DNA of 57,102 nucleotides from a virus: IMG/VR virus record IMGVR_UViG_3300017430_000001, positions 1 to 57,102 of that record. One strand, 5' to 3'. Positions 20,069 to 49,690 of this stretch are shown here, piece after piece; position 1 is the stretch's first letter, and each line of letters opens with the position of its first letter. The notes below the pieces were generated by a model. That model saw nothing but the letters and a program-made list of their open reading frames with translations, was not told the origin of the DNA and searched no databases. The position numbers were made by a program, and so were the translations under genes.

Positions 20069-20087
20069 ACTGATAAATTTAATACGA
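20069..20087 (+). promoter_or_regulatory. Motif copy ACTGATAAATTTAATACGA (extended -10)
   Basis: Member of the ACTGATAAACTGGTATAAG family; followed only by a hairpin and a terminator. Confidence 0.45.
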
Positions 20088-20108
20088 TCACATCGGCACC
20101 TGTGCCCG

Positions 20109-20140
20109 AAAACCCCTTCTTAACCGGAGGGGTTTTCGTT
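20109..20140 (+). terminator. Rho-independent terminator
   Basis: AAAACCCCT-N10-AGGGGTTTT followed by cgtt. Confidence 0.7.
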
Positions 20141-20167
20141 GTCCCCCAAATGACCGACAAAGACCCG

Positions 20168-20186
20168 ACTGATAAACTAGTTAGGA
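20168..20186 (+). promoter_or_regulatory. Motif copy ACTGATAAACTAGTTAGGA
   Basis: TGATAAACT lies 28 nt upstream of the ATG at 20206. Confidence 0.5.
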
Positions 20187-20205
20187 CGCTTAAAAAGAGG
20201 ACGAC

Positions 20206-20649
20206 ATGCGGAAGAAACTGATTCACTGGGTGCATTGGAGTAAGACGCCCATTATCGTTCCGCGGTGGCTTTTAACGATGAAGTACGCCGGTTTCATCAT
20301 CCTCGGCATCTTTTCTGCGCTATCGGGGGGTTTGCGAACTCTTAACACCGTGTCTGTGGATGTTTACCCAACGATTTGGTCATTCGGGGTTATTGCAGTG
20401 GGGGCAGCGGCTTTGGTGGGGTCGCTGAGGGAAAAATGGGAATGCCACGTAGAGAAGTGGGCGGGGCTTGTTCTCTTCGGATTACTGCTTTCATGGGCGT
20501 TTGCGTCGATGATTATTGCCTTTAATGAGGGTGATTTGGCACGAGCTACGGGTGCATTCGCTATTTTGCTGCTGTCAATGCTCCCGGGGGTACGATCTTT
20601 CAGCCTGCTTTCTCAGCATGGCGTTGGCGGGGGTAGCAAGAAGGTATGA
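20206..20649 (+). CDS. Integral membrane protein (about 4 TM helices)
   Basis: Four hydrophobic stretches in the ORF-track protein. Confidence 0.6.
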   Translation: MRKKLIHWVHWSKTPIIVPRWLLTMKYAGFIILGIFSALSGGLRTLNTVSVDVYPTIWSFGVIAVGAAALVGSLREKWECHVEKWAGLVLFGLLLSWAFASMIIAFNEGDLARATGAFAILLLSMLPGVRSFSLLSQHGVGGGSKKV

Positions 20650-21068
20650 ATTGGGAAGCACTCATCGTCCCCTCCATCCCGGGAGTCCTCGCCCTTATCG
20701 GCGTCGTATACGGGGTGTACGCATCTCGCCGGAACAAAATTGACGAAACAGATTCCACCAAGCAAGCCCGCCGGGAGCCTACCTGGAACGAGGTTGTGAA
20801 CGAGAACCGTCAACTGCGTAAAGACCTGGACGAGCAGAAGAAAGACCACGAAGACGCTATCAAGAAGTTGGAAGAGCGCTTCGATGCCTTCGAGAAAAAG
20901 ACGAATACCCGCATCGGTGGCCTGAGCAACATGCTTCATGAGGCGAGTCGCCAATGGCCGTCTGACCGCGAGGGACCCTACTTCGACCAGGAGTACCTAG
21001 ACGCCCTGGAGAACACCGACGTTCCCTACATCTGGCGAAATCGGGTGCGCCCCGGGGGTGCGGTGTGA
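20646..21068 (+). CDS. Single-pass membrane protein with a coiled-coil domain
   Basis: N-terminal IVPSIPGVLALIGVVYGVY, then charged heptad-like ENRQLRKDLDEQKKDHEDAIKKLEERF. Confidence 0.6.
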   Translation: MNWEALIVPSIPGVLALIGVVYGVYASRRNKIDETDSTKQARREPTWNEVVNENRQLRKDLDEQKKDHEDAIKKLEERFDAFEKKTNTRIGGLSNMLHEASRQWPSDREGPYFDQEYLDALENTDVPYIWRNRVRPGGAV

Positions 21069-21379
21069 ACCCGTACGATGCTATCCGGTGGATCAACATT
21101 GTCGCGCTTTCACTTGTTGTACTGGGTCTATCAATATCCGCGTGGGTGTATCGTCGTTACCCTCTTAACGTCAAAGGCGTAGCACTCGGGCTGTTCGCGG
21201 TTTCGGGTTTGTACTCTACCGTGGAAGCACTTATCAACAACGTCCCGGGCGGCATTCGTTCCGTAACCGTTCTGTTCGTAGCGTTGGTTGCGGTCATCTT
21301 GATCTACACGCCTATGGTTGAGTGCTGGGTGACGAACGTTCGCCGCCGCAAGCAATTCCGCGGCCCTGATCTCGACTAG
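21065..21379 (+). CDS. Integral membrane protein (about 3 TM helices)
   Basis: Hydrophobic stretches in the ORF-track protein. Confidence 0.6.
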   Translation: MNPYDAIRWINIVALSLVVLGLSISAWVYRRYPLNVKGVALGLFAVSGLYSTVEALINNVPGGIRSVTVLFVALVAVILIYTPMVECWVTNVRRRKQFRGPDLD

Positions 21380-21432
21380 CAAGCTCGGCTGACAACTCGC
21401 GCTCACTCCGTTTGCTGACAGTTTACTGAGAA

Positions 21433-21465
21433 CCCTCTTGTTTTCGAGCAAGGGGGCTTTTCTTT
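21433..21465 (+). terminator. Rho-independent terminator
   Basis: CCCTCTTG-N8-CAAGGGGG followed by CTTTTCTTT. Confidence 0.7.
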
Positions 21466-21495
21466 GCCCTAGAGTAGACACAGGAGGAAAATACA

Positions 21496-21975
21496 ATGAC
21501 TTTTAAAGTAGGCGACTACGTTCGATTGATTGGGCCTAATTGGCGTCCCGAAGAAAAAACGGCGGTAATTGCAGAAACTAACTGGGACGGCCCGACCAGT
21601 TATCGTGTCCGCGTGGATGGGTTTACGTATTCAGATGATCCTGAAGATGGGCACGAGGCGGATGAGTCGGAAATTGAAAAGATCGAGACGTGGGCGACTG
21701 TGGGGGACAAAGCAATCGGCCAATTAAAGGGTTCCCTCGAAGAGTTCATTGAAGCTAACACCCGAAAGGGCGGCAGTTACTACGACTTCCCGGGCGGCGT
21801 AGAAGTTCGGCAGATTTCGGCCCACCTTACCGGATTTGGCGCACAGGCGCTTCAGTACGTGGCACGTTCCACTCGACTTGACGGCAAGAACAAGGGCGAC
21901 GTCGTATCGGACCTTCGAAAAGCCATCGACTTTATTACGTGGGAAATTGAACGACTTCAGGGGGATGCCGAATGA
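21496..21975 (+). CDS. DUF3310-like protein
   Basis: C-terminal YYDFPGGVEVRQI..ALQYVARS..DLRKAIDFITWEIERL resembles the DUF3310 pattern. Confidence 0.5.
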   Translation: MTFKVGDYVRLIGPNWRPEEKTAVIAETNWDGPTSYRVRVDGFTYSDDPEDGHEADESEIEKIETWATVGDKAIGQLKGSLEEFIEANTRKGGSYYDFPGGVEVRQISAHLTGFGAQALQYVARSTRLDGKNKGDVVSDLRKAIDFITWEIERLQGDAE

Positions 21976-22208
21976 CCATTGACGAGATCGAACAGTGGAT
22001 TTACAATTACTACCAGTCCATGACTGCGCGTATTACTGAACTCAAAGGCCCTGTGGTTGCGGGCTACACCAAAGTTCAAGAAGTGGGCGAGATTGCAAAT
22101 TACTGGGCCGTTGCCGATTCGCTTTACCTTGAAGATGCTAAGAAGTTGACTTACAAGGAATGCGTAAACGAGTACGGAACAATGACTGCGATGGAGCGTG
22201 AGTTTTGA
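21972..22208 (+). CDS. Hypothetical protein
   Basis: ORF track; 4-nt overlap. Confidence 0.5.
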   Translation: MTIDEIEQWIYNYYQSMTARITELKGPVVAGYTKVQEVGEIANYWAVADSLYLEDAKKLTYKECVNEYGTMTAMEREF

Positions 22209-22387
22209 GCGAGGAACTGATTGAGCGCTATCTGTTGCAGGAAATGGTGGCGTACGGTTTGATTTCGTGGGATCGAGACGACAGTTACGTTTACGAGGGT
22301 CATCATCATCATCATCAGGACTACGCCGTAGAGGTTCGCGTCCTACCGCTAGGTACGAAGAGCGTTCGATTGAAGGAGAGGGAATGA
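22205..22387 (+). CDS. Hypothetical protein with a native His5 tract
   Basis: ORF track; (CAT)5 at 22301-22315. Confidence 0.5.
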   Translation: MSEELIERYLLQEMVAYGLISWDRDDSYVYEGHHHHHQDYAVEVRVLPLGTKSVRLKERE

Positions 22388-22569
22388 GCAAGAAACCCCG
22401 CCATTTTATTCCTTACGGCTCTTACTTTGCGCCGTGTGACTATATTACAGACACACGTCACGCTGATCAGGAAACCGACCGCCGGAAGGAAGTTACCTGC
22501 CCCGAGTGTCAAAGAAGCATGAAAGATTTGGGTGACTTACCGGAACCCGTTACGCATTATCGTAACTGA
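22384..22569 (+). CDS. Zn-ribbon-like hypothetical protein (61 aa, ..C..CPEC..)
   Basis: ORF track 22267..22569, trimmed to the ATG at 22384 (ATGA overlap, GAAGGAGAGGG upstream). Confidence 0.5.
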   Translation: MSKKPRHFIPYGSYFAPCDYITDTRHADQETDRRKEVTCPECQRSMKDLGDLPEPVTHYRN

Positions 22570-22583
22570 TAAACTGAAATAAG
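22565..22583 (+). promoter_or_regulatory. Motif copy ACTGATAAACTGAAATAAG overlapping the stop TGA at 22567
   Basis: Followed by about 100 nt of structured noncoding sequence and a terminator. Confidence 0.45.
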
Positions 22584-22640
22584 CGAATTACACTCCCACG
22601 ATTCGCAAGTAGGCTCCCACCCCTCCTGGCCTGCGGGCTT

Positions 22641-22688
22641 AACCCCTTTCGTTGTTGGTCTTAGATCACCGAGAGGGGTTTTGTCTTG
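22641..22688 (+). terminator. Rho-independent terminator
   Basis: AACCCCTTTC-N20-GAGAGGGGTT (10 bp, one G-U pair) followed by TTGTCTTG. Confidence 0.65.
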
Positions 22689-22700
22689 CCCGAAAACATA

Positions 22701-22719
22701 AGCGATAAACTGGTATAAG
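22701..22719 (+). promoter_or_regulatory. Motif copy AGCGATAAACTGGTATAAG upstream of the small terminase gene
   Basis: TAAACT at 22706-22711, then AGGAGG and the ATG at 22735. Confidence 0.55.
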
Positions 22720-22734
22720 GAGGAATACAAGACA

Positions 22735-23247
22735 ATGACTAATGAGGTAGATACAACCGACGCTCGTATCGAGTCGTATATCTACAAGCACATCGGTAAG
22801 AAGAGTGCCCGCGAGATGGCAACTGATCTGGGGGTGCAGCCCGAACAGATTCTTGCTATCAAACGGGAAATGGTCGACTCTGTAGATGAACTAACCATCT
22901 CCATTCAGAAAGCTAAACTGCTTCGAAGTCTTCAAGAACTAGCTGAGGACGCGCAGGAAAAGTCTAAAAACGTTGCTGATATGCGCAACTACTCGGGGAT
23001 GATCAACGCTTCTGTGGGTGCGATTAAAGAACTGTTCCGGCAACTTAACGCGTTGTCGAAACAGGACAACGAAAAGATCAACCAGCTTAATGATCTTCGT
23101 AAGCGCGAGATTGTGGCAATGTATATTTCGACCGTTGACGCCTCGGTGAAGGAGGTAGCCCACCTCTTCAGTATTGGTGAAGACGCGCTGTTCGATATCT
23201 TCAACAAGAACCTGGAAGCCGCTGCCGCTGAAATGGATAGCCGGTGA
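22735..23247 (+). CDS. terS: Terminase small subunit (by position; HTH-like N-terminus)
   Basis: Immediately upstream of and overlapping the large terminase gene; N-terminal GKKSAREMATDLGVQPEQILAIKR. Confidence 0.55.
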   Translation: MTNEVDTTDARIESYIYKHIGKKSAREMATDLGVQPEQILAIKREMVDSVDELTISIQKAKLLRSLQELAEDAQEKSKNVADMRNYSGMINASVGAIKELFRQLNALSKQDNEKINQLNDLRKREIVAMYISTVDASVKEVAHLFSIGEDALFDIFNKNLEAAAAEMDSR

Positions 23248-24800
23248 CGGGTCTTTTTAACGCAACCTCTGCCGCCCTTGACGATATCCGGGATAGGGCA
23301 CGCCGTCAAGCCTACAAAGAAGACCCCGTTTTGTGGGCTAAAGACGTTCCCGGCATCCACCTGTGGTCCCAGCAAGCAGATGTTGCCCGCTCTGTCGCCA
23401 AGAACAAAGACGTTGTTGTCAAGGCCGGTCACGGTGTGGGTAAGTCCCTACTGGCTGCCCTCCTTGTGTGTTGGTGGATTGACACCCGCTACCCCGATTG
23501 CTTCGTAGCCTCTACCGCCCCCTCAACCGCTCAGATTGGCGCTATCGTCTGGCGTGAAATCGAGAACATCTCCGCGATGGTGGACAAGCGCTTCAAAGAA
23601 GGCAAGGTCGATCACAAACTCCCCGGCTACCGGACCAGTCAAAACGAATGGAAGACGGATACCGGAACGGTAATCGGCTTTGGTCGTAAACCCCCGGACG
23701 GCGAAAACCGTACTGGAGACTCCCTTCAAGGTATTCACGCATCCGGCGGTGTTCTGGCAATCGGTGACGAGGCAGTGGGTCTTACCGAAAGCCTGATTGA
23801 CGCCCTCGGTAACATCACCTCTACCCGTAACTCCCGGCGCTTGCTTATCTGCAACCCCACCAACCCGGGGTCGTACGTTGCAAAGCTGTTCAAAAACAAG
23901 CCCGCTAACTGGACGTATCATACGATTTCCGTCCTGAACAGCCCAAACTTCACGGATGAGAAGCATGTCACCCCGCCTGAGGTGCTGGAAGCTCTGACGG
24001 ATGAGTCGTACCTGGAAGCCAAGCGCGAAGAGTACGGCGAAGGCTCCCCGATGTGGAAATCCCGCGTCGAGGGTGAATTCGCCTGGGACATGGGTAATAC
24101 CCTGTTCAAGCCCGAAGACCTGGAAAAAGGCTACGACTGCGTGGCCCCCATTTCCGATGCGCTCCCTGTCCTCGGTGTTGACGTATCTCGCTCCAAGTCC
24201 GGCGACACCAACACGATTTACGAATACCTCTCGGGCCGCTTGCGCTTTGTCGATGAATGGAACGACGCCAACGCGATGAACACCGCGGGCAAGATTCACA
24301 AAACGGCGCTGGGCCGCGGCGTATCCGAAGTCCGTATCGACGGTGCCGGTTTGGGTGGCCCTATTGCCGACCGGGTGCGGGAACTCTCCGAAGGCCGATA
24401 CGACGTTATCGAAATTCTGGGTGGTAACGCTTCCCCTGACCGCAACCGGTGGTTCAACTTCCGCGCGTGGAGTTTTTGGTCACTGCAAGATCGTCTCGCC
24501 AAGGGTCAAATCGACTTGGACATTGAAGACGAGCAATTGGCCGATGAATTGCTGGGCATGGAGATTAAAAAACGTACCTCGGGGGTGGCAAACCTTCTGA
24601 TGGAGTCCAAGGAGGATATGCGCGCCCGTAACGTCAAATCCCCCAACCGGGCAGACGCCGCCAACTACGCAAGCATTGACCTCTCCCCTTGGACGGGTCG
24701 TGTTCCCGAGGGCACTTTGTACACCGAAGACCCGAGTGACATTCCCGACTACGGCTACCGGCAGTATTTGACCCGCCCGGGACAGCCAATTTTGGGATGA
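23244..24800 (+). CDS. terL: Terminase large subunit
   Basis: Walker A KAGHGVGKS, Walker B-like VLAIGDEA, C-terminal nuclease-sized domain; followed by portal. Confidence 0.85.
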   Translation: MTGLFNATSAALDDIRDRARRQAYKEDPVLWAKDVPGIHLWSQQADVARSVAKNKDVVVKAGHGVGKSLLAALLVCWWIDTRYPDCFVASTAPSTAQIGAIVWREIENISAMVDKRFKEGKVDHKLPGYRTSQNEWKTDTGTVIGFGRKPPDGENRTGDSLQGIHASGGVLAIGDEAVGLTESLIDALGNITSTRNSRRLLICNPTNPGSYVAKLFKNKPANWTYHTISVLNSPNFTDEKHVTPPEVLEALTDESYLEAKREEYGEGSPMWKSRVEGEFAWDMGNTLFKPEDLEKGYDCVAPISDALPVLGVDVSRSKSGDTNTIYEYLSGRLRFVDEWNDANAMNTAGKIHKTALGRGVSEVRIDGAGLGGPIADRVRELSEGRYDVIEILGGNASPDRNRWFNFRAWSFWSLQDRLAKGQIDLDIEDEQLADELLGMEIKKRTSGVANLLMESKEDMRARNVKSPNRADAANYASIDLSPWTGRVPEGTLYTEDPSDIPDYGYRQYLTRPGQPILG

Positions 24801-24833
24801 TGGTTGGTCATTTGTATGATAGTGTTAAGTATC

Positions 24834-25709
24834 ATGCAAACGGGATTTATTTATGGTCTTTACGACGTTCGCGACTCCAAGAAGACGGTTCGGTACGTAG
24901 GACAGACGCGCCAGAAGAGGGGCGTGACTATGCGTATCTACGGGCATGTCCACGATTCAAAAACACCCGTCTACCCAGTTTCGCATTGGATCTCTGCGAT
25001 AAAGCCCGAAAACCTGTCTTATATTACGCTGTCCCAGCCTCAGGTTGAAGACCTAGATGCTGACGAGATTTGGTTTATCGCCAAGTACCGTTCTATGGGT
25101 CAAGCCGACTTGAATGTAGCAGAGGGTGGTCAGGGACTTACAAGCAAAAGGGCTCAGGGTGAAAACAATCCTAAAGCTAAACTTACCCAGCTTCTCGTAG
25201 ATCGGTTCCGGGAACTGTCCAAAACGGAGTATGTATCCACCGTTAAACTAGCGGAACAACTAGGTGTGACATCTATCACAGTGTCAAAGTTTCTAACTAA
25301 CTACACGTGGTATGACGCGGACTATGACCCGAGCAAACGTAAGACCGTTTCAGATACGAATAAAACAGACGCGCTTGTTTGGCGCTCTTTGACCGACGAT
25401 CAGGTAAACAATCTGCGCCGGGAATATCTAGATGGCGTCCCAGGGGCCAAATTGAGCAAAAAATACAACATTCCTGCTACGTCTCGGTCACGATACCTAT
25501 TTGAGAAGTACGGTGACGAGGAACTTCGTTTAAAGTGTGTTGCGGTGCGACCCCCTGTAGTAAACCGATCCAACAAGGTCACCCCCGAAGAGAGGATTGA
25601 GATTTTGAAGCGCTATGAGTCCGGGGAGAAGCAGAAAGATATTGCGCGAGACTATGGCATAACGCAGAGCGGTGTATCCGCAATCTGTAAAATGCTAAAA
25701 TTGAACTAA
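24834..25709 (+). CDS. GIY-YIG homing endonuclease with repeated HTH (NUMOD1/IENR1-like) modules; the start could also be 24804 or 24816
   Basis: GFIYGLYD..VRYVGQT (GIY-x10-YVG), E..WFI, repeated ..LAEQLGVTSITVSKF.. and DIARDYGITQSGVSAI; AT-richer than its flanks. Confidence 0.8.
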   Translation: MQTGFIYGLYDVRDSKKTVRYVGQTRQKRGVTMRIYGHVHDSKTPVYPVSHWISAIKPENLSYITLSQPQVEDLDADEIWFIAKYRSMGQADLNVAEGGQGLTSKRAQGENNPKAKLTQLLVDRFRELSKTEYVSTVKLAEQLGVTSITVSKFLTNYTWYDADYDPSKRKTVSDTNKTDALVWRSLTDDQVNNLRREYLDGVPGAKLSKKYNIPATSRSRYLFEKYGDEELRLKCVAVRPPVVNRSNKVTPEERIEILKRYESGEKQKDIARDYGITQSGVSAICKMLKLN

Positions 25710-25711
25710 CC

Positions 25712-27292
25712 ATGGATGCTAATACCGACCCAATTGCCCTTTTAGGCGAGGCTTTCTCGCGCATTCCCGCTCTAGAGGCTGAAAATGGTGAACTTCGAGA
25801 ATCTATTGCGCAGGTTCGCGCCCAACTCGAGGGAGATAATGAGGGTTGGGCGCTCATCTCGGGTATCCAGCGCGGCGAGAAGCTAGAGGGCCTGGACCTC
25901 GACGAGGTGCAGAAAGTGGCTGCCCTCATTCAGCCCAAAGTTGCCGCAGGTTCTATGGCGGGTCGTGCGGTAGACCTCCATACCGGATTCGTCTTCGGTC
26001 GCGGCATGAGCATCGAGGGCTTGGAAAAGCCCGCTAAGGCTACTCGGGGTGCTAAGAGGGGCATTGTCGCCTTTTACGGGGACCCCGATAATCAGGAAGC
26101 GCTTTTCAATAGCGACTCGCAGGCGGAACTTCAAAAAGCCCGCTTTATTGACGGTAACGTGCTGATTGCGTGCAACACCAAGACGAAAAAAGTCAGTCGT
26201 ATCCCGTTCAACCAAGTCACCGGGCTTCGTATGGACCCCGACTTCCCAGAGCGGATTACCGCCTATAAGCGTACGTGGACGAGCCAGAACGCCAGCGGGG
26301 ATGACGTGGTAGTAAACCGTTGGTACGTCACTCGTCGTTGGGCTGGCCGTATTCCCGAAACCCTACTAACCGGACCGGATAAGAAAGAAGTCCCGGTCGA
26401 TCAGGACACCACGATAGTTGATTTCCGAGCCAACCGACAGACGGGTTTCGTACTCGGCATCCCGGACGGCCTTCGAGGCATTCACTGGTCGCAGGCATAC
26501 ACCGAGCACATTCGCCACGGCCAGGTTGTTACCGAGGGTCTTTCCCGCCTCATCTTTAAGATCACGAATGTCAAGTCCAAGGCGGGCGCTCAGAACGCTG
26601 GCGTCAAGATGGGTTCGTTCACCGGTAATGGGGGAATGGCCGCTGTTGGAGAAGGTCAGGACGTAGAGGCTGTCCGCACCGCGGGTAATGCCTATGCCTT
26701 CGAGAAACTACGCCCCATTGCAGCCCTTGCAGCAGCAGCGTGGAACGTTTCTAACGCCGATCTTCTGAACGATTCGGCAGCAGCAGGTGCATCGTACGGT
26801 GCCCTCTCCGGGCTAGTTGTTGGTAACCGTAACGCCATGACGCTCATGCAAAAGCAGTGGGCGAACGTCTACCAGGACGTGTTTGAGGTCTTCGGGTTTG
26901 GGCGTCCCGAGATTCACTGGGAACCGCTGGAAGCCCCCGACCCTTACCGGGCGGCACAGGCACTTACTCTTCTCGCCCCTACCCTTCACAACGCGGAATA
27001 CCGCAAGGGCGCTCTCGATATTCTCGATATGACCGGCGATCCGAACGAAACTCCCGAAACTCTTGCGGCCCGAGTAGCCCAGGCCAACACGAATGGCGCA
27101 TCCGCAGGCACTCAGCAGGCGTCTCCAAACCAGGGTCAGAACTCCCCCTCAGGTGCCGCGGGATCTTCAGACTCCAATGACCTGAGAACAGATACACTCG
27201 CCAACTCACTTCGACGTGAAATGGCTAACGACGATTTCCTTACAAAGTTTGAACAATTGGTTATTCGCGCGGAGAACCTTAGTAACAACTGA
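25712..27292 (+). CDS. Portal protein
   Basis: 526 aa, located between terminase and scaffold/capsid genes. Confidence 0.75.
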   Translation: MDANTDPIALLGEAFSRIPALEAENGELRESIAQVRAQLEGDNEGWALISGIQRGEKLEGLDLDEVQKVAALIQPKVAAGSMAGRAVDLHTGFVFGRGMSIEGLEKPAKATRGAKRGIVAFYGDPDNQEALFNSDSQAELQKARFIDGNVLIACNTKTKKVSRIPFNQVTGLRMDPDFPERITAYKRTWTSQNASGDDVVVNRWYVTRRWAGRIPETLLTGPDKKEVPVDQDTTIVDFRANRQTGFVLGIPDGLRGIHWSQAYTEHIRHGQVVTEGLSRLIFKITNVKSKAGAQNAGVKMGSFTGNGGMAAVGEGQDVEAVRTAGNAYAFEKLRPIAALAAAAWNVSNADLLNDSAAAGASYGALSGLVVGNRNAMTLMQKQWANVYQDVFEVFGFGRPEIHWEPLEAPDPYRAAQALTLLAPTLHNAEYRKGALDILDMTGDPNETPETLAARVAQANTNGASAGTQQASPNQGQNSPSGAAGSSDSNDLRTDTLANSLRREMANDDFLTKFEQLVIRAENLSNN

Positions 27293-27307
27293 TAAGATTG
27301 GATAGAG
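27288..27307 (+). promoter_or_regulatory. Motif copy ACTGATAAGATTGGATAGAG overlapping the portal stop codon
   Basis: TAAGAT at 27293-27298; ATG 27308 follows 9 nt later. Confidence 0.4.
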
Positions 27308-29744: not shown

Positions 29745-29810
29745 ACCAAGGGTACGGTCTTAGTTCCTACGGGAACGGTGCCTACGGTTCATAACAAGAC
29801 CTAAACGATT

Positions 29811-29842
29811 AACCCCCATGCTTGTACAGGTGGGGGTTTTTC
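29811..29842 (+). terminator. Rho-independent terminator after the capsid gene
   Basis: AACCCCCA-N12-TGGGGGTT followed by TTTCG. Confidence 0.7.
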
Positions 29843-29881
29843 GCACCCTAAACGAAAGATGAGAATTCTCTAATACACCCG

Positions 29882-29900
29882 TCCGATAAAATGGAAAGAG
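29882..29900 (+). promoter_or_regulatory. Motif copy TCCGATAAAATGGAAAGAG
   Basis: TAAAAT at 29887-29892, upstream of the ATG at 29932. Confidence 0.45.
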
Positions 29901-31817: not shown

Positions 31818-31836
31818 ACTGATAAACTGGTATAAG
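31818..31836 (+). promoter_or_regulatory. Consensus motif copy ACTGATAAACTGGTATAAG
   Basis: Read directly; followed by TATAAT at 31840-31845 and another copy at 31877-31895. Confidence 0.5.
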
Positions 31837-31876: not shown

Positions 31877-31895
31877 GTTCATAAAATGGATATAG
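31877..31895 (+). promoter_or_regulatory. Motif copy GTTCATAAAATGGATATAG
   Basis: TAAAAT at 31882-31887. Confidence 0.4.
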
Positions 31896-34724: not shown

Positions 34725-35127
34725 TTTCACCAACGGACGCCAACTCTACGAATGGGTTGAAGACAAATTAGACCGTCTTACCGATCAGGCAAAAGACGCT
34801 ATCCGTGAGGGCGCTAAAGAGGGTGAAGATTTAACCAAGTTGCACATTGAGACGCGGGGTACGGCCAAGTCGGGCAAGCAAGGGCGTATTGAAACCGGTC
34901 GTATGCGGGACGCTGTGTCCTCCCGGGTGGAAAAGGATACGGATACCGAGATTGAAGCATTTTTCGGTTGGCTGGATGACCGTGCGAACTATTTCGGACT
35001 GCAAGAGCGTGGCTTTACCCACACATCCGGCGTAGACGTTGAAGGTATGTTCGCACTTTCGGACGCGGCAGACCAAGTGGTGCGAGATATCGAACGCAAA
35101 CTCGGTAAGGCGGTGAGAGATGTATAG
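34717..35127 (+). CDS. HK97 gp10-like neck/tail completion protein
   Basis: ORF track trimmed to MVNFTNG; ..FFGWLDDRANYFGLQERGFTH.. resembles the gp10-family core. Confidence 0.5.
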   Translation: MVNFTNGRQLYEWVEDKLDRLTDQAKDAIREGAKEGEDLTKLHIETRGTAKSGKQGRIETGRMRDAVSSRVEKDTDTEIEAFFGWLDDRANYFGLQERGFTHTSGVDVEGMFALSDAADQVVRDIERKLGKAVRDV

Positions 35128-35551
35128 CCTGGAAGAAGCTCAGGAAGCAATTCTTGCCTTTATCGACGCTGAATTTGTTCAGGACGTATATGAGCAGTCC
35201 ATTTCGGATTTGACCCTTGTGAGCCGCGATGCCCAGGGACGACTTAAGCCCTACATCGCCGTAGACTTTGGGGACACTGCGGAAGCAGGCGCGCGAACTT
35301 TCGCAGGCCCTCGCACTTACGATTACGCCCTCACAATCCGATGCCGCGCCATTGCCCCCACCCCGAAGATTGCCCGTCAACTCGGAAACAAGCTTGTCCG
35401 AAAAATGCTGGGCTTTTCAACCGATTGGTCAGGTGGGATTACGAAAAGCCGCGCGGCGGGGCTATTCCCGATTACCACTTCGAATATGGCGACCGAAGCC
35501 TACCAAATGGCGGTCGGCTTTAATTTGACGCTCCAACTACAGGAATACTGA
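35120..35551 (+). CDS. Tail terminator-like protein (by position)
   Basis: ORF track. Confidence 0.4.
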   Translation: MYSLEEAQEAILAFIDAEFVQDVYEQSISDLTLVSRDAQGRLKPYIAVDFGDTAEAGARTFAGPRTYDYALTIRCRAIAPTPKIARQLGNKLVRKMLGFSTDWSGGITKSRAAGLFPITTSNMATEAYQMAVGFNLTLQLQEY

Positions 35552-35565
35552 TAGAATTAAGTGAG
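35547..35565 (+). promoter_or_regulatory. Motif copy ACTGATAGAATTAAGTGAG overlapping the stop at 35549
   Basis: TAGAAT at 35552-35557; ATG 35566 follows 8 nt later. Confidence 0.35.
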
Positions 35566-36354: not shown

Positions 36355-37173
36355 ATGCCTATGGATTACGTTAAGCTCCGCGCTAACCTGGACGCTTCTG
36401 TCGTCACCCCTTACATTGGCCCCTCCGGTGGTACCACGCTTGGTATCACCGACATTCACCAGCCCACCGCTGCGGAACTAAACAACACAGGCGGAAGTTC
36501 TGCCGTTGTGATGGCCGCTGAGGCAATTAGCTGGAACGACTGGGACTTCGGTGTCAGCGAGTCGGAAACCAACAACGAGCCGTCAATGGCGGACATTTCG
36601 ACCTATGAAGAGTTCGGTCAGTACAACTACGGCGGCGGTATCTCCTTCTTCCAGCCGCTCGAAAACGATGACCCCTCGAACGTTCTTTCCGTTGTCAAGG
36701 AACTGACCAAGGTTGATCTTGACCAGGACATTGCTATCCGGGTAGACGGCAACAAGTCTAACGCCACCCCCGCGGCTAACGGCGACTACATCTCGGTCTT
36801 CCGCACCACTTCAACCGCCGTTGAAAACCCCTTCACCCCGGGTGAGTCCAAGCGCCGTACGGTCACTTTCGTTGAGAACGGTGATTTCGCTCACTACACA
36901 GTTGTCGGCCCCCACACCCTTGTTGCTGTCCCCCCTGCAACTGCTCCTTGGGCTTCGGGCAAGAAGGCGCGTCTTCGTGTAACCGTTCAGGGCCGCGATT
37001 ACACCAACGCCACCCCGATTCGTTTCACGTCTTCGGATTCAACGGTTGTCGCCATTGGTCCGGGCGGCGTTTACACCGTCACCGGCGCGGCAGGCACTTC
37101 CGCCACGATTACGATCACCGACACTGACGCTAACACCACGACCACGGTAAACGTTACGGTGACTGCGCCGTAG
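36355..37173 (+). CDS. Major tail (tube) protein paralogue 2 with a C-terminal Ig-like extension
   Basis: C-terminus RLRVTVQGRDYTNATPIRFTSSDSTVVAIGPGGVYTVTGAAGTSATITITD looks like a Big_2-type domain. Confidence 0.6.
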   Translation: MPMDYVKLRANLDASVVTPYIGPSGGTTLGITDIHQPTAAELNNTGGSSAVVMAAEAISWNDWDFGVSESETNNEPSMADISTYEEFGQYNYGGGISFFQPLENDDPSNVLSVVKELTKVDLDQDIAIRVDGNKSNATPAANGDYISVFRTTSTAVENPFTPGESKRRTVTFVENGDFAHYTVVGPHTLVAVPPATAPWASGKKARLRVTVQGRDYTNATPIRFTSSDSTVVAIGPGGVYTVTGAAGTSATITITDTDANTTTTVNVTVTAP

Positions 37174-37253
37174 TAAACTAGAAGAGTAGCAAGATGGCCC
37201 CTGGCTGGTTAATTCTGGCTGGGGGCCTCCACTATTAAACGAGGGGTTTAATT

Positions 37254-38260: not shown

Positions 38261-38279
38261 ACTGATAAACTGGATAGAG
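38261..38279 (+). promoter_or_regulatory. Motif copy ACTGATAAACTGGATAGAG
   Basis: TAAACT at 38266-38271, upstream of the GTG at 38313. Confidence 0.45.
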
Positions 38280-41921: not shown

Positions 41922-42895
41922 TGGTTCGCTTAACCCGTAAGAACTTCTGGCTGGATGTAGAGGGCGGCTGGAAAGGCTGGATTCGTACCCCCAACCGCGG
42001 TGCTGATTCCTCCCCCACCGGCTGGGCAGTCGATGGAACCCTGCTCAACGGCGGTGGTTATGCGCTGAACTCGTTTGGCTCTCACAAGCGTTACACCTAC
42101 GCCTGGCCGGATTCATCCCCCCGGCAAGAAGCTCAGTTTATGAAGAGCCTGGCGGATGGCACATACGGACGCGGGCTTATCCACTTCATTGAACCCACCC
42201 TTTACGACCAGAACATTCTCCCCGCCCGGGTGGCAGACCCCTCAATGGCCGTGGATGACGAAGGTGCATCCCTGGTCTACGGCTACGATCCTTCGGGGGT
42301 GGTAACAAGCGGGTGGGAAACGAACCTTCTACCGCTCACCTCGGCATACTACAATCTCTTCAATGTTGAAACGGGTTACCGCGGATCGTCCGACACTGTT
42401 TATGTGCCGATTCCCGAAGGGTACACGCTTTTCCTTGGTGCGTTCTATTCAGCTACGGGTTCAGGCGGTATCTTTGCCCGGGAGGTGCTATCCAATGGCG
42501 TTGAGGGTTCAGACACAACCCTTACACCTTTGTCTAATGACTCATCCGTTGTAACTGCGGATTCTTTTTCGGGTATTCGCGGCATTCGTATTTGGCTGGG
42601 TAAAACGGTTTCAGGTGCGGCAACGGTAACCGCCACGGCTCTTATTGGTAGACTGGTAAAGAGCGAGATTCTTAATTCCGCTTTGGGCTACGGTGAGGGT
42701 GGGTATGGCGAAGAACCTTACGGCGGCGTATACCTTCCCGAATGGGTCACGGCGGGGCCTTGGGTTGGCGGTATGGGGCACAGTGGGTGCCGGTTCGTCG
42801 GTAAGCCCTCATTCGTCTCTAATACAGGCGTAAACGGCGGTCAAGTCGGTTATTCCGCAACCTTCCAAGAAGTAGGCTCGTGGCTATCGGGCTAG
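41915..42895 (+). CDS. Distal tail protein (Dit-like) minor tail protein
   Basis: First gene after the tape measure gene; 326 aa. Confidence 0.55.
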   Translation: MVMVRLTRKNFWLDVEGGWKGWIRTPNRGADSSPTGWAVDGTLLNGGGYALNSFGSHKRYTYAWPDSSPRQEAQFMKSLADGTYGRGLIHFIEPTLYDQNILPARVADPSMAVDDEGASLVYGYDPSGVVTSGWETNLLPLTSAYYNLFNVETGYRGSSDTVYVPIPEGYTLFLGAFYSATGSGGIFAREVLSNGVEGSDTTLTPLSNDSSVVTADSFSGIRGIRIWLGKTVSGAATVTATALIGRLVKSEILNSALGYGEGGYGEEPYGGVYLPEWVTAGPWVGGMGHSGCRFVGKPSFVSNTGVNGGQVGYSATFQEVGSWLSG

Positions 42896-42905
42896 GGGAG
42901 AAGTA

Positions 42906-45606: not shown

Positions 45607-46238
45607 ACCCCAAAGACGTTTTTCCCCGTCGTAATCTTGGCCCGTCTGATGAATGGGCTAGAGCCGTTGAAGACAGAATTCGAGACCTTGAATACGCTGT
45701 TCTAGGCCAAAGCACGAACCTTAAAAGCGATAATCGAGCCAACTCATCTAACTTTCAGGAACTCGCACGTCAGCTTGTGCAATTGCGCGCCCTTCAGGCT
45801 CAAAACGAGGCTGCAATTCGGGCTATTCCCAAGACGTTGCAGTCCCTTGATTCCGCCGCCAATTTCTCTTTGGGTGCGGGCTGGAACACGGTGGTATCTA
45901 CCTCGATTACGGTCCCTCAGGGTGTGAATTACGTTCGTCTTGCCGCTTACGGTTCGGGTCAAGTCGTAAGCACTACCACCACTCAAAACGTGGAGACACA
46001 GTACCGAGTAGTCGTCCCGGGTATCGGTGAGCAGCCTCCCGCCCCTGGACCTTGGGCTGTCGGCTACGGAGATTTCCGTACAATCCTTCTCCCGTCTTAC
46101 GCCTGGGAAGCGTCTGTAAGTCCGGGACAAATCCTTACAGCACAGTTTCAAGTGCTACCCACAGACCCCGGGGCGTATTCCGCGCCTAACGGGGATTCCT
46201 ACGCCATCATTACCCTCCGTGCAACTTTCACAGGGTGA
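45603..46238 (+). CDS. Minor tail protein sharing its N-terminal domain with the M23 protein
   Basis: KDVFPRRNLGPSDEWARAVEDRI.. parallels ADVFPRRNLGSGEYWGRTVETRI.. Confidence 0.55.
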   Translation: MNPKDVFPRRNLGPSDEWARAVEDRIRDLEYAVLGQSTNLKSDNRANSSNFQELARQLVQLRALQAQNEAAIRAIPKTLQSLDSAANFSLGAGWNTVVSTSITVPQGVNYVRLAAYGSGQVVSTTTTQNVETQYRVVVPGIGEQPPAPGPWAVGYGDFRTILLPSYAWEASVSPGQILTAQFQVLPTDPGAYSAPNGDSYAIITLRATFTG

Positions 46239-46239
46239 T

Positions 46240-46258
46240 GCTGGTAAAATTGATTAGG
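46240..46258 (+). promoter_or_regulatory. Extended -10-like TGGTAAAAT
   Basis: gcTGGTAAAATtgattAGGAGG, then the ATG at 46272. Confidence 0.35.
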
Positions 46259-46271
46259 AGGACACATACTT

Positions 46272-46796
46272 ATGGCGACTACTAACGGCGACGACCTTTG
46301 GACCCCGGATGCTGGGGATGATTACGCCCTTACTGTGGACCTTGCGGCGTTTGCGGACACGGTACAAACCGGCCTGAACAACCGCGTTAAAAAGTCCGAT
46401 ATGGGGGCGGCAACTTACAACATTGCCTCCAACCAAGTAGCGGATGCATCTATTACGGCTAATGCTGCCACCACCGTTGTACCCGCACAAACCAATAACT
46501 CGGGCTTTGTTATTTCGTCCGCGGGAACTGTTTTCACAGTAACCCCCGGCTATTACAATTGCAGCGCACTTATCAAACTGAACACCGCGGGTACAGGACG
46601 TTGTTTTGTCGAAATCCAAGTTAATGGCGAACTTGTAAATCGTAATACCGTCTTTGCCCCCGAAGACAGCTATGGCGTTAGTGCGGGGTTCTACGTCTCG
46701 GCACAGTCCACGGTGACTGTCCAATTCTTCAAGACCACGGGTGGCGGGGCAAATATTACAGGCCGGGTGGCGCTTATGAAACTGGGCGCGCAGTGA
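46272..46796 (+). CDS. Minor tail protein (fibre tip-like)
   Basis: N-terminal DLWTPDAGDDYALTVDLAAFADTV pattern typical of actinophage minor tail proteins. Confidence 0.5.
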   Translation: MATTNGDDLWTPDAGDDYALTVDLAAFADTVQTGLNNRVKKSDMGAATYNIASNQVADASITANAATTVVPAQTNNSGFVISSAGTVFTVTPGYYNCSALIKLNTAGTGRCFVEIQVNGELVNRNTVFAPEDSYGVSAGFYVSAQSTVTVQFFKTTGGGANITGRVALMKLGAQ

Positions 46797-47677
46797 TCGG
46801 CATTGAAGGCACAGTTCCTCTAAACGGCGGAAGGGGACGTGCAACCCCGCAGTGTCAATGGTCGATCCACCGTATTGATGCGCAACTAGGCCGGTACTTG
46901 GACATCAACTCCGCCTGGCGTGACCCGCAAGAGCAAGAGCGTTTCTATACCGCTTACCGCGCGTACGTCAATGGTAACGGCCCGTGGGCACCTATTGCAC
47001 TCCCCCCGGAGCAGTCGGTTCACTGCAAGGGTGAGGCAATCGACACAGACGACAACAATGCGTCGATGACCCGTATCCTTAACGACAACGGCTGGTTCCA
47101 CACGGTTTTCCGGGATGGGAAACTTGTCGAGCCGTGGCACTACGAATACGACTATAAGCGAGACAAATATTTCGGTGGCACCCCTGCATCGGGCGGGGAA
47201 GCAACACCTCTACCGCAGGAATGGGATGAAATGGCTACTAAGCAGGAAATTAAGGATGCTCTTTCCGAGGTGATTAGCGCTCGCCCCGCCACTTCGGATA
47301 CGGTAATTATCAGTTACTCGGGTTCTGGGGGGCGTAATGGTGTCTTCCTCGCGGCTCCTGGGTTCTGGCACCAGTTCAGCCCCGAACAGTGGGAACAGTT
47401 TCAGGCTTACGGCGCTCACGCAGGTATCAAGATTATTCGACCCAACAACGACCGAGCCTTTGATATCTTCCTTGAAATCTTTACCAATAACGACAGCCCT
47501 GCAAATGCGGCCCTCCCCGGTAACATCGCAACCGCGGTTCTCGGTGGGCGTGTTCAGGCTCAGGATGCCGCGGGTAACTTCTTGACCCGAGATGGGAAGC
47601 CCCTCACCTTCCCGCTATCCGGGTTTGTCGCCTCCACCAACGCTCAGGTCAACGCAATCTACACCGCCCCAAAATAA
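46793..47677 (+). CDS. Endolysin, M15 (VanY/L-Ala-D-Glu-type) peptidase domain plus a C-terminal domain
   Basis: SAWRDPQEQ, SVHCKGEAIDTDD and EPWHYEY zinc-peptidase motifs. Confidence 0.75.
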   Translation: MIGIEGTVPLNGGRGRATPQCQWSIHRIDAQLGRYLDINSAWRDPQEQERFYTAYRAYVNGNGPWAPIALPPEQSVHCKGEAIDTDDNNASMTRILNDNGWFHTVFRDGKLVEPWHYEYDYKRDKYFGGTPASGGEATPLPQEWDEMATKQEIKDALSEVISARPATSDTVIISYSGSGGRNGVFLAAPGFWHQFSPEQWEQFQAYGAHAGIKIIRPNNDRAFDIFLEIFTNNDSPANAALPGNIATAVLGGRVQAQDAAGNFLTRDGKPLTFPLSGFVASTNAQVNAIYTAPK

Positions 47678-47691
47678 GTAACCCTAGCCAA

Positions 47692-48138
47692 TTGGACGTT
47701 CCGATAAACGGGACAACCACCCGGCTAGGGAAACGGCAGTTGGATATTGCAATCGCTATCATTCGAGGTGCGTACTCGCGTAATCTCGGGGTCGCAGGTG
47801 CGAAAGTCGGGCTTATGACGGCTCTGCAAGAATCGGGCCTTCGTATGTACGCGAACATGAACGTACCTGAATCCCTGAACTACCCGCATGACGCCGTAGG
47901 CTCCGATTACGATTCGCTTAACCCGTTCCAACAGAGGGTTAAGTATTGGGGCACGGTAGCGCAATTGATGAACCTCGATTACGCCATTAACGCCTTCTAC
48001 GCCGCTTTGGTTCGAGTACCCGGGTGGGCTGTTATGCGTCCAGGTGTTGCCGCTCAGCGAGTTCAGGTAAGTGCTTACCCCGATGCGTACGCCAAGTGGG
48101 AACAAGCCGCTGACACACTTCTTGATACACTTAAATAG
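47692..48138 (+). CDS. Possible second lysin component (lytic transglycosylase-like)
   Basis: MTALQESGL (E-S motif) and its position between the peptidase and the holin. Confidence 0.35.
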   Translation: MDVPINGTTTRLGKRQLDIAIAIIRGAYSRNLGVAGAKVGLMTALQESGLRMYANMNVPESLNYPHDAVGSDYDSLNPFQQRVKYWGTVAQLMNLDYAINAFYAALVRVPGWAVMRPGVAAQRVQVSAYPDAYAKWEQAADTLLDTLK

Positions 48139-48149
48139 GAAAGGTAATT

Positions 48150-48428
48150 ATGGCTGATTCAAGTCTAGGAACGGTTATCACTAACCCGAACGTCCGCAAG
48201 GTTATCTACGGCATCTACATTGTTGCCGGTGTAATCCTTGGCGCTGTACAGGTCGCATTCGCGGCTATCGAAGGGGCGGGCCAGCCCGATTGGCTCACCG
48301 TTAGCCTTGCCGTCTACGCCTTCCTGAGCGTGCCGGTTGGTTCTCTTGCCCTGGTCAACACGACCGCGGGTGAAATCAAGACCTCGGAGGCTATCTACAC
48401 GGGTACGCCGGATTCAGACTTCCGATAG
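48150..48428 (+). CDS. Holin-like membrane protein (2 TM)
   Basis: Two hydrophobic helices and a charged C-terminus; last gene of the lysis cassette. Confidence 0.55.
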   Translation: MADSSLGTVITNPNVRKVIYGIYIVAGVILGAVQVAFAAIEGAGQPDWLTVSLAVYAFLSVPVGSLALVNTTAGEIKTSEAIYTGTPDSDFR

Positions 48429-48539
48429 AGGAAGAGGGGCAATTCGCTACTGCCCACGGTTATAGTGCAGGTCACTAGTAGAAAGGAGCATCCCACTTTG
48501 ACTACCCTGTCATAAGGAGGTGTTCACGTCTACGGCGAA

Positions 48540-48588
48540 GCCCCCAGTCAGGACTCTTACACCTGAAGCTGGGGGCCTTGTCGTTTCT
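48540..48588. terminator. Hairpin at the convergent junction of the two arms
   Basis: GCCCCCAG-N21-CTGGGGGC followed by CTTGTCGTTTCT. Confidence 0.5.
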
Positions 48589-48590
48589 AC

Positions 48591-48719
48591 TTACGGGCGG
48601 GGCGTCACTATCACAGTCGAGACCTCTAGAGACTCCAAATAGAAAAAAGCAATCCCCGCAATAAGGCCAGCGATAAAGACGAGAATAACGGCCCCGGTGG
48701 TTTTAAGAATGTCGCTCAT
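48591..48719 (-). CDS. Small membrane protein (42 aa, MSDILKTTGAVILVFIAGLIAGIAFFYL..)
   Basis: ORF track trimmed to an internal ATG. Confidence 0.45.
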   Translation of the reverse strand: MSDILKTTGAVILVFIAGLIAGIAFFYLESLEVSTVIVTPRP

Positions 48720-48730
48720 TTCGTCCCGAG

Positions 48731-49462
48731 TCACGAAATCTCCCTCTGATTGGTGGACGGGGTGCGGGTCGTGCCGTGAGTCCAGTGACCGCAATCCTGA
48801 CACTGATACCGCTGGTACTCGCCCTGAAGACTACGGGCGGTCCCACGCTTCTGAAGGTTGTAGGAAGCGCACGTACGACACCGGTCTTCACCTTCCTTGA
48901 TGGGGTGCGGCATTTTCAGCCAGCCTTGGAGTTTGTAGAACAACTCTTCGAGAAGGTCAACGTCCTGCTTCTGATAACGACGCATTTTCCGCCACGCCGC
49001 CTCATCCCCCGCCATAACGCCCTGCCAGAGTGCGAAACCCCCGGTATCGACCTTCTTGCCGACCCCGAGTTCCTGAGCCACAAAGTCTAGCTTGTTAGAC
49101 GCGAATGCGAACCGCGACTTAGCCAACTTCATCAAGTCGAGTTCTTTGTACGGGGCCGGTGGGGTAAGCCCGTGCTTCACAAACTCCGTGTTCGCTTTCT
49201 TCGTATCGAAGCGCTGCCCGTTCCAAGACACCACCATATCTGCCTCGGTGAGTAAATCGCGGAGTACGGTGAGCATTTCCACGTAGCCCATGCGCTGGTC
49301 GTAGACCTTGGTCGGCTTACCCAGCCACTTAGCCCCGAAGCACAGCATTTCCGAGGGGTTGATGACCATGTTAGCGGGAATGAACTTCGGCCACAACCCC
49401 CAGGAATACACCTCCATCGGCGTGTTCTCCAAATCCCAGCACAGAACGCGAGCATCACTCAA
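48731..49462 (-). CDS. DEDD-type 3'-5' exonuclease (RNase H-like) with a C-terminal Zn ribbon
   Basis: LCWDLEN (DxE), SWNGQRFD, YQKQDVDLL, CRTC..CQDC; TTG start. Confidence 0.6.
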   Translation of the reverse strand: MSDARVLCWDLENTPMEVYSWGLWPKFIPANMVINPSEMLCFGAKWLGKPTKVYDQRMGYVEMLTVLRDLLTEADMVVSWNGQRFDTKKANTEFVKHGLTPPAPYKELDLMKLAKSRFAFASNKLDFVAQELGVGKKVDTGGFALWQGVMAGDEAAWRKMRRYQKQDVDLLEELFYKLQGWLKMPHPIKEGEDRCRTCASYNLQKRGTARSLQGEYQRYQCQDCGHWTHGTTRTPSTNQREIS

Positions 49463-49629
49463 AAGATGACCTCAATCCCTACGGGCTTACCATCAAACCC
49501 CGTGTCGAAGAGGATAGCAACACCCTCAGAATAGGTTGTCAGTTGTTCCGACTTCTTAACCTCGCTGTCGCTAAACTTCAAATACCCTGCGTTTGCATCC
49601 GGGTCGAACGTCCAAATTGGTTCAGTCAT
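49459..49629 (-). CDS. DUF2283-like small protein (56 aa)
   Basis: My translation MTEPIWTFDPDANAGYLKFSD..GVAILFDTGFDGKPVGIEVIF; GGGAGGGG upstream. Confidence 0.5.
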   Translation of the reverse strand: MTEPIWTFDPDANAGYLKFSDSEVKKSEQLTTYSEGVAILFDTGFDGKPVGIEVIF

Positions 49630-49672
49630 TACCCCTCCCGGGTACTAGCCTATCAGGTGCCTCAAAGACACC

Positions 49673-49690
49673 GGTAGTAAAATGGAACTC
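49673..49690 (+). promoter_or_regulatory. -10-like GTAGTAAAATGG upstream of nrdH
   Basis: TAAAAT at 49678-49683. Confidence 0.3.

Follow-up and report, generated by a model that had tools for sequence, protein, structure and literature searches.

The window analysed in this work, the whole 57,102-nt stretch of IMG/VR virus record IMGVR_UViG_3300017430_000001, is a phage genome of 57.1 kb with a GC content of ~54%, and our subject is a short sequence element that recurs between the genes of its rightward arm. The minus-strand genes (1–18.5 kb and 48.6–57 kb) carry the replication functions, with a family A DNA polymerase, a DUF3987 primase-helicase-like protein, ThyX, an RNase H-fold exonuclease, a SNF2-like helicase, ERF, SSB and a WhiB-like protein, and this arm also contains tRNA-Leu(CAA) and tRNA-Gln(CTG). 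The plus-strand genes span 18.9–48.4 kb, starting with small unknown proteins and continuing with a terS-like gene, terL, an inserted HNH endonuclease gene, portal, head protease, capsid, tail genes, tape measure, M23 peptidase and a VanY-like lysin. Megablast with 10 kb of the window gave no match among GenBank phages. A 57,009-bp contig from the assembly of run SRR6987409 matches the window. Two IMG/VR contigs (L001/L017 and L002/L018) are close relatives, 70–97% identical to the window at the DNA level, in a mosaic fashion. The cultured Microbacterium phage Lifes (Cluster GB) has a TerL 55% identical to that of the window and the same genome layout; phages of this cluster are lytic by description (PMC12776033). 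Two more loci, L004 and L007, have a TerL only ~52% identical.

A preliminary description of the window had proposed a conserved 19-nt motif (ACTGATAAACTGGTATAAG) with ten strong plus-strand copies (20069, 20168, 22565, 22701, 27288, 29882, 31818, 31877, 35547, and 38261), three weak ones (37169, 46240, and 49673) and minus-strand copies ahead of both tRNA genes. The sequences are as described at all these places, including 1476 and 1632 on the minus strand, but conservation does not extend over the full 19-mer. The ten strong copies differ from it, in the order given, by 9, 6, 2, 2, 6, 6, 0, 8, 7, and 4 mismatches and the weak ones by 9, 7, and 10, so that only those at 22565, 22701, and 31818 stay within three mismatches. 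A binomial estimate gives ~1000 chance sites with 9–10 mismatches in a window of this size, and therefore such a likeness carries no meaning alone. It is a shorter core that recurs, (A)CTG(A/G)-TAAAnT-(G/T)G, followed by A-G 7–8 nt past the hexamer.

This shorter unit is unevenly distributed between the strands. ACTGATA occurs eight times on the plus strand, seven of them in non-coding DNA or at gene edges of the rightward arm, and once on the minus strand, while ACTGATAAAC is found four times on the plus strand and never on the minus. An unbiased k-mer screen of the rightward non-coding DNA placed GATAAAC, ATAAACT, and TGATAAA at the top; for the leftward non-coding DNA the top k-mer was CTAGGCT. 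We then took 18 plus-arm intergenic segments with the stop codons removed and compared them with 1000 dinucleotide shuffles: ACTGATA was observed five times vs. 0.14 expected, GATAAANT seven times vs. 0.18 and TAAANTGG five times vs. 0.20, and in no case did any of the 1000 shuffles reach the observed count. The preliminary description had made the motif depend on precisely such an enrichment over shuffled intergenic DNA with stop codons controlled, and it is evident here. Since the enrichment persists without stop codons, and neither ACTGATA nor GATAAANT occurs on the opposite strand of these segments, the motif is real, strand-specific and not produced by stop codons.

A weight matrix built from the ten strong copies also recovers the sites at 46240, 48121, and 25691, together with an intragenic one at 42644 (scores below ~14 bits are at shuffle level). 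The sites at 25691, 48121, and 18861 had been overlooked before. Among the copies formerly listed as weak, 46240 is backed by the close relatives and 49673 by a counterpart in Lifes, while 37169, which has no TG, is doubtful. Some apparent recurrences were discarded: an exact scan of viral contigs with the 19-mer returned only L014 and L015, unrelated contigs of 38% GC that we consider chance matches, and the 10-mers CGGTAACATC and AGTTCTTTCA recur by coincidence, within coding sequence and in frame. In single distant loci (L004, L011, and others) k-mer enrichment is weak, and direct inspection for TGnTAnnnT is informative.

When 13 window sites are aligned on the hexamer, the information is restricted to positions -17 through +2. 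Upstream lie A-17, C-16, T-15, G-14, and A-13, then the hexamer T-A-A-A-(C/A)-T, then (G/T)-6, G-5, and A-4, and finally A-G at bases 7 and 8 past the hexamer; the invariant positions are T-15, G-14, T-12, A-11, T-7, G-5, A+1, and G+2. The hexamer TAnnnT fits all 16 plus-strand sites and the tRNA-Leu site, G-14 is present in 13/16 and the complete TG at -15/-14 in 11/16, with 1.2–1.4 bits of information at these two positions. No -35 or activator box appears in the aligned window sites, where -52 to -18 is at noise level, and from -40 to -28 the information is ~0 in the site sets of the window, of Lifes and of phage Jojan60 (ON045087; L028/L029) alike. The fit to an extended -10 element with no -35, as originally suggested, is thus upheld, and so is the distinction from the promoters of the leftward arm, which have perfect TTGACA-N17/18 boxes with TAG(A/G)CT-type hexamers. 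Clear non-coding examples of this other class are found at ~8–18.7 kb (the one at 18710 faces rightward), and the consensus matches near 2.3 and 2.8 kb are inside predicted genes. Lacking a -35, a promoter must be near consensus elsewhere, hence a class more uniform than the one containing -35 boxes. The fusion of motif and stop codon was also borne out at 27290 (the portal stop), 35549, 37171 (a TAG), and 22567, where the open reading frame is weakly supported. Upstream frames end inside the motif because it contains TGA and then an in-frame TAA or TAG, and this fusion would be a by-product of tight gene packing in a compact lineage that fits stop codon, promoter, and start codon together within 14–20 bases.

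An internal direct repeat can be seen in two of the sites (31818–31836 and 38261–38279), CTGATAAA followed by CTGGTATAA, and in one of Lifes (L026, 12254–12275), GGTAGAAT followed by GGTAGAAG. The downstream half resembles a degenerate second -10 box without its final T. We discarded the idea of a second -10 or a sigma-dependent pause, as this half usually has no final T, lies at -4 to +2 and is absent from the tRNA and Jojan60 sites.

The position of the sites relative to genes, and their persistence in other phages, point to promoters. They are co-oriented with the genes and nearly all intergenic, three of them (20168, 22701, and 29882) lie directly downstream of intrinsic terminators, and the distance to the next start codon goes from 8 to 159 nt. 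Those abutting tRNA genes exclude a translation signal. In L001, L002, L017, and L018 the element is found at the matching gaps despite changed bases. In Lifes, CTG(A/G)TAGAAT(A/G)G precedes tRNA-Leu as well as the portal, protease, post-capsid, tail chaperone, tape measure, and NrdH-like genes, in several cases fused to a TGA stop. The portal, protease, and capsid genes of Jojan60 lie behind GGTAGAAT-, TAAACT- or TAGGAT-N6-ATG. More widely, TGnTAnnnT or GGTAGAAT stands 6–7 nt before an ATG in Jojan60, L003, L004, L008, and L011, a distance at which leaderless mRNAs beginning on the A of the ATG would be predicted. Between lineages the hexamer drifts at -10 to -8 (TAAACT in the window, TAGAAT in Lifes and Jojan60), while TG, T-12, A-11, T-7, and G-5 remain fixed, as does the A-G start in the window and Lifes. 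These conserved positions coincide with contacts of the ordinary holoenzyme (sigma regions 3.0, 2.4, and 1.2 and the core recognition element). Taken together, the sequence comparisons suggest that the sites are probably ~15 extended -10 promoters without a -35 box, used by host RNA polymerase with its primary sigma factor (Table 1); the identity of the polymerase, the exact starts and the timing are what we infer from them.

Table 1. Predicted promoter sites of the window and features associated with them.
Position	Strand	Sequence	Assignment and context
1470–1486	-	GACGA-TAAACT	6 nt to the mature 5' end of tRNA-Leu(CAA)
1628–1642	-	GATG-TAAAACT	Related site directly ahead of tRNA-Gln(CTG)
5746–6105	-		WhiB-like protein, candidate polymerase modulator (role by inference)
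18861–18879	+	TGC-TACAGT (TGCTACAGT)	Putative extended -10 promoter of the first rightward gene
20069–20087	+	ACTGA-TAAATT	Promoter-like; followed by a small hairpin, a strong intrinsic terminator (~20107–20146) and the next site
20168–20186	+	ACTGA-TAAACT	Putative extended -10 promoter; 27 nt to ATG 20206
22565–22583	+	ACTGA-TAAACT-GAAATA-AG	Putative extended -10 promoter; appears to drive a ~110-nt structured RNA
22582–22695	+		Candidate small RNA or leader of ~110 nt, between the 22565 and terS promoters
22701–22719	+	AGCGA-TAAACT-GGTATAAGGAGG	G-14 only; 23 nt to terS-like gene 22735
25691–25709	+	TGC-TAAAAT (TGCTAAAAT-N10-ATG)	Putative extended -10 promoter; portal ATG 25712
27288–27306	+	TAAGAT-N9-ATG	Putative extended -10 promoter, TGA is the portal stop; ATG of head protease, predicted 2-nt leader
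29882–29900	+	TCCGA-TAAAAT-GG	After the post-capsid terminator; 39 nt to ATG 29932
31818–31836	+	ACTGATAAACTGGTATAAG	Exact 19-mer
31877–31895	+	GTTCA-TAAAAT-GG	Weaker tandem second site, no TG
35547–35565	+	TAGAAT-N8-ATG	Putative extended -10 promoter, TGA is the stop of 35120–35551; ATG 35566, upstream of major tail genes
37169–37187	+	TAG-TAAACT	Doubtful, no TG; followed by a 13-bp hairpin without U tract
38261–38279	+	ACTGA-TAAACT-GGATAGAG	Putative extended -10 promoter; 41 nt to the tape measure gene
46240–46258	+	TGG-TAAAAT-TGATTAGGAGG	Putative extended -10 promoter; gene 46272 (lysis region), downstream part also ribosome-binding site
48121–48139	+	TGA-TACACT	Putative extended -10 promoter; 18 nt to gene 48150
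49673–49691	+	TAG-TAAAAT-GG	Weak; lone plus-strand NrdH-like gene 49716

The counterparts in other phages can be followed from one end of the arm to the other. At the first rightward gene Lifes has TGCTACACT and then GGTGGGATCGTCCCAC, and L030 has TGCTATACT; in the window the site is followed by an inverted repeat, GTGGGAC-AAAC-GATCCCAC (18861–18912), which could be an operator or a hairpin in the 5' untranslated region. At 20069 the relatives keep a -10-like hexamer (TAAATT or TACAAT) ahead of the terminator. The site at 20168 is conserved in L001, and in L002 the leader of the 20206 homologue has been deleted to leave TAAACT-N10-ATG. Relatives of the 22565 site (variants including TGCTAAACT and GGGTAAAGT) retain TAnnnT and its spacing to AG. 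For the portal, L002 has TGGTAAAAT and both Lifes and Jojan60 have GGTAGAAT. In the gap before the next gene, counterparts exist in L001, L002, Lifes (CTGATAGAAT-N9-ATG), and Jojan60 (TAAACT-N6-ATG); this gene, taken for a scaffold in the preliminary description, matches a head maturation protease family instead. After its capsid gene Lifes has a terminator and then CTGGTAGAATGG, matching the site at 29882.

Among the tail genes, the 35547 site is nearly identical in L002 and L018, and Lifes carries CTGATAAACT plus a hairpin ahead of its tail chaperone genes. The tape measure site is identical in L018 and corresponds to TGATAGAAT in Lifes and CTGGTAGAATGG in Jojan60. Toward the right end, L017 and L018 conserve the 46240 site and have TTGATAGACT at the position of 48121. 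The NrdH-like protein is 60% identical to Lifes gp48, and CCTGATAAACTAG lies ~30 nt ahead of gp48 in Lifes, which lends support to the weak site at 49673. As for the tRNA genes (1394–1486 and 1553–1642, minus strand), the hexamer lies ~6 nt ahead of each in the window and 8 nt in Lifes (TGATAAACT-N8-tRNA for tRNA-Leu). Primary transcripts are thus predicted to begin on the mature 5' end or directly beside it, so that RNase P would have hardly anything to trim, if anything at all.

Each promoter would then consist of T-15/G-14, a TAAAnT hexamer and a G-rich discriminator, with transcription starting at the A-G 7–8 nt past the hexamer, and together they would restart transcription within the tightly packed rightward arm. 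The predicted products are of several kinds: mRNAs with a 5'-terminal ribosome-binding site (genes 22735 and 46272), near-leaderless mRNAs for the protease gene 27308 and gene 35566 (2-nt leaders each) and for the portal gene 25712, a short structured RNA (22582–22695) and, on the minus strand, two tRNAs starting at or adjoining their mature 5' ends. The use of the same element ahead of the tRNAs and the NrdH-like gene extends it beyond the structural genes.

The structured RNA downstream of 22565 contains two hairpins with C-rich loops (CUCCCAC and CCCACCCCUCCU), one of which includes CCUCC, the anti-Shine-Dalgarno sequence, and a terminator-like hairpin; its fold z-score is -3.3. It is ~97–100% identical in L001, L002, and L033, where the flanking terS/terL DNA is 64–85% identical, and the promoters ahead of it differ in four phages (ACTGATAAACT, CCTGATAAACT, TTGCTAAACT, and GGGTAAAGT). 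A search of Rfam over 19.5–38.4 kb gave nothing at E ≤ 1, hence no match for this RNA, and at gathering score Rfam returned tRNA only. The segment could act as a small RNA of the phage or as a regulatory leader. Ahead of the terS-like genes of Lifes and L030 stand comparable hairpins whose loop reads CCCUCCC.

A promoter-terminator-promoter order is seen at 20069/20168 and again at 22565/22701. After 20069 a small hairpin and the terminator follow within ~20 nt (20087–20146), the terminator with a 13-bp stem and a z-score of -3.95. Jojan60 likewise has an extended -10 site and then a terminator-like hairpin before terL, as has Lifes before the tail chaperone genes. This order could yield short RNAs or allow regulated read-through.

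Sequences read by host sigma factors of actinobacteria offer a close parallel. In Corynebacterium glutamicum the sigma-A promoters have a TAnnnT hexamer, a spacer of 3–11 nt to the start and a weak -35, many are of the extended -10 kind and 33% of the mRNAs are leaderless (PMC3890552). The window sites share with these the TAnnnT, the TG one base upstream, the weak or absent -35 and, by prediction, the spacer and frequent near-leaderless mRNAs, but are much more uniform, have the extra bases at -17, -16, and -13 and the A-G start, and are often fused to stop codons. The Cluster GB phages (Lifes, WaterT, LeeroyJenkins, and BarnCat) share both the layout and the motif family at matching positions, and differ in their preferred hexamer (TAGAAT vs. 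TAAACT) and in a TerL only 55% identical; we found no description of the motif in the literature on Cluster GB or its relatives. Cluster EC phages have an 18-bp motif (TAGaCTATaGGTgTaAgC) in ~12 copies of one orientation and encode a sigma factor (PMC7302621, PMC12776033). It resembles ours in occupying short intergenic gaps upstream of starts and in beginning with a -10-like TAGACT followed by conserved bases, and differs in sequence, in spacing (21–30 bp to the start codon) and in the encoded sigma factor. Other one-orientation motifs of actinobacterial phages are the start-associated sequences of Clusters EF and K and the inverted repeats of Cluster EG (PMC7302621). The promoter family of the window is therefore a fresh example of an already known type, well supported and of modest surprise.

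The preliminary description went further, holding that conservation downstream of the hexamer implies a dedicated factor, for which it named the WhiB-like protein and an AbrB-like one. That inference is not supported: the conserved positions coincide with the holoenzyme contacts, only those are fixed between lineages, and the data do not call for a dedicated trans factor. Searches with Pfam and PHROGs among ~68 window proteins detected neither a sigma factor nor an RNA polymerase gene, ~35 small open reading frames being unscreened. The "RNA polymerase sigma-H factor" annotated in Jojan60 was rejected as a phage sigma, because Pfam detects no sigma domain in it and its homologue in the relatives is the gene in terS position, directly upstream of terL. 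The AbrB-like label (18914–19267) could not be sustained: Pfam yields nothing for the protein, even at E 10, a sequence search of the PDB is likewise empty, a fold search with its AlphaFold model (pLDDT 79) gave a best E of 1.2, with AbrB N-domains only at E 2–5, and none of its ten homologues in the protein collection has a Pfam domain or source name. Its sole resemblance to AbrB is the short motif VRKADSKGRV. The WhiB-like protein is a reasonable candidate. It scores 21.8 bits with the Pfam Whib model, below the 23.6 cut-off, and is 30% identical to Lifes gp80 (E 2e-18). Against the WhiB-like (Wbl) pattern of C-Xn-C-X2-C-X5-C plus a G(V/I)WGG turn, it has the four invariant cysteines (C-X21-C-X2-C-X5-C) and a turn GIFAG, vs. 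GVWGG/GIWGG in relatives. Its conservation in the window, Lifes, and Jojan60 shows that it has been kept across the lineage.

Could a phage factor, either an activator or a protein remodelling sigma, nevertheless define a middle/late class, with the extra conserved bases as its response element? The two arms do carry promoter classes that are plainly distinct, and the uniformity of A-17, C-16, and A-13, which recurs in L004 and L007, exceeds what sigma contacts alone would lead one to expect. A variant dispenses with a DNA site: a small protein, perhaps the WhiB-like one, would bind sigma region 4 and disable the early -35-dependent promoters while the extended -10 ones stay active, in the manner of gp39 of Thermus phage P23-45 or AsiA of T4. 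Wbl proteins bind sigma-A region 4. The anti-termination known for gp39 (PMC3950348) could explain the sites followed by terminators. Nothing is conserved upstream of -17, however, where an activator would bind, all the strongly conserved positions coincide with holoenzyme contacts, the hexamer drifts as expected if sigma alone reads it, the element drives tRNAs and NrdH as well as structural genes, and the AbrB-like candidate is unsupported. As WhiB genes are widespread among phages of actinobacteria, their co-occurrence with the sites weighs little. Overall we regard a dedicated factor as unlikely, without dismissing it. Promoters read by host polymerase alone do face some difficulties, which weigh against them: besides the -17, -16, and -13 bases just mentioned, a small polymerase-binding factor is possible among the ~35 unscreened frames; leaderless genes are expected to show hexamer-N6/7-ATG, and the fused window sites have N8–N10 with a predicted leader of 0–3 nt; terminators downstream of 20069 and 22565 are odd for simple operon promoters; and a TerL scan of bacterial genomes gave only 28% matches, in Dehalococcoidia/Chloroflexi bins, which do not point to a host.

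Two further readings were weighed. Stoperators of Cluster A mycobacteriophages are asymmetric sites of one orientation in short intergenic gaps, where bound repressor blocks transcription, and our motif is likewise asymmetric, has a single orientation relative to transcription, sits in short gaps and frequently overlaps stop codons. It is very improbable that the sites are operators of this kind, recognised by a DNA-binding regulator of the phage: their invariant bases match a -10 element exactly, the distance to ATGs and tRNA 5' ends is fixed at a promoter-like 6–10 nt, no identified regulator changes in step as the sequence drifts from lineage to lineage, the searched proteins include neither an integrase nor a repressor, and the literature describes the cultured relatives as lytic (PMC12776033). 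Similarly little credit goes to a role at the RNA level, as a processing site or as a translation-start-associated sequence like the start-associated and extended start-associated sequences (SAS/ESAS) of Clusters K and EF, and we would place it slightly lower still. Many sites are near starts, and at 22701, 46240, and 48121 a ribosome-binding site coincides in part with the downstream half, but the distance to the start codon varies over its whole 8–159 nt range, where SAS/ESAS need a fixed place at the ribosome-binding site, only a few bases ahead of the start, tRNA genes and a non-coding RNA lie downstream of some sites (those at the tRNAs contradict this reading outright), and the best-conserved part, TG plus hexamer, would precede the predicted start of the transcript.

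With host-read extended -10 promoters as the favoured explanation, the existence of two classes still invites comparison with phages in which the host polymerase is redirected. In Thermus phage P23-45, gp39 moves sigma region 4, by which -10/-35 promoters are silenced and the extended -10 middle/late promoters spared; gp39 also anti-terminates, and T4 AsiA works similarly (PMC3950348). The likeness lies in having two promoter sets, -10/-35 and -35-less extended -10, both read by host polymerase there and probably here, and in sites of the window that precede terminators, as gp39 anti-terminates. Unlike in P23-45 and T4, no gp39 or AsiA homologue was identified in the window, and both switch and timing are hypothetical here. 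By analogy, one speculative and rather improbable proposal is that a small phage protein, likeliest the WhiB-like one acting on sigma-A region 4, serves as a timing switch between the classes. The TTGACA-dependent early and host promoters would be shut off, the -35-less extended -10 promoters would be left or favoured, and read-through of downstream terminators might also be permitted. The C-rich-loop RNA from 22565 could in addition mask ribosome-binding sites, from which near-leaderless phage mRNAs would escape. In actinobacteria such a switch would correspond to P23-45 gp39 and T4 AsiA and, if true, would give a function to a very common and poorly understood phage gene.

The sites as they stand provide a ready predicted transcription map for an uncultured phage, and show one promoter layout shared by the entire lineage; the cultured Cluster GB Microbacterium phages belong to it and make direct tests of the layout possible. 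They illustrate the degree of gene packing that phages can reach, and correct the notion that a special factor must lie behind conservation downstream of a -10 box. As compact, -35-independent parts, the promoters might also be used for expression in actinobacteria.

The ends of the homology blocks between the window and L001, L002, L017, and L018 (22566, 25690, 27311, 29852, 31795, and 48138) fall within ~30 nt of motif sites. A promoter sequence common to relatives may serve as a recombination linker between modules, or this may be a coincidence reflecting gene boundaries only. Between terL and portal, a 291-aa HNH/homing-endonuclease-like protein with helix-turn-helix domains (24834–25709, plus strand) is inserted; it is absent at this position in L002, where the portal directly follows terL. 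Jojan60 was deposited as a Stenotrophomonas virus, and this host assignment looks questionable because of its WhiB1-like gene, its actinobacterial-style leaderless promoters and a gene order that is that of Microbacterium phages. On the leftward arm, the small early genes 14403, 18173, and 18492 (minus strand) each have a TTGAC(A/C)-class promoter upstream and all open with an identical ATGAACATCA (Met-Asn-Ile), so they may be paralogues or share a common start context.

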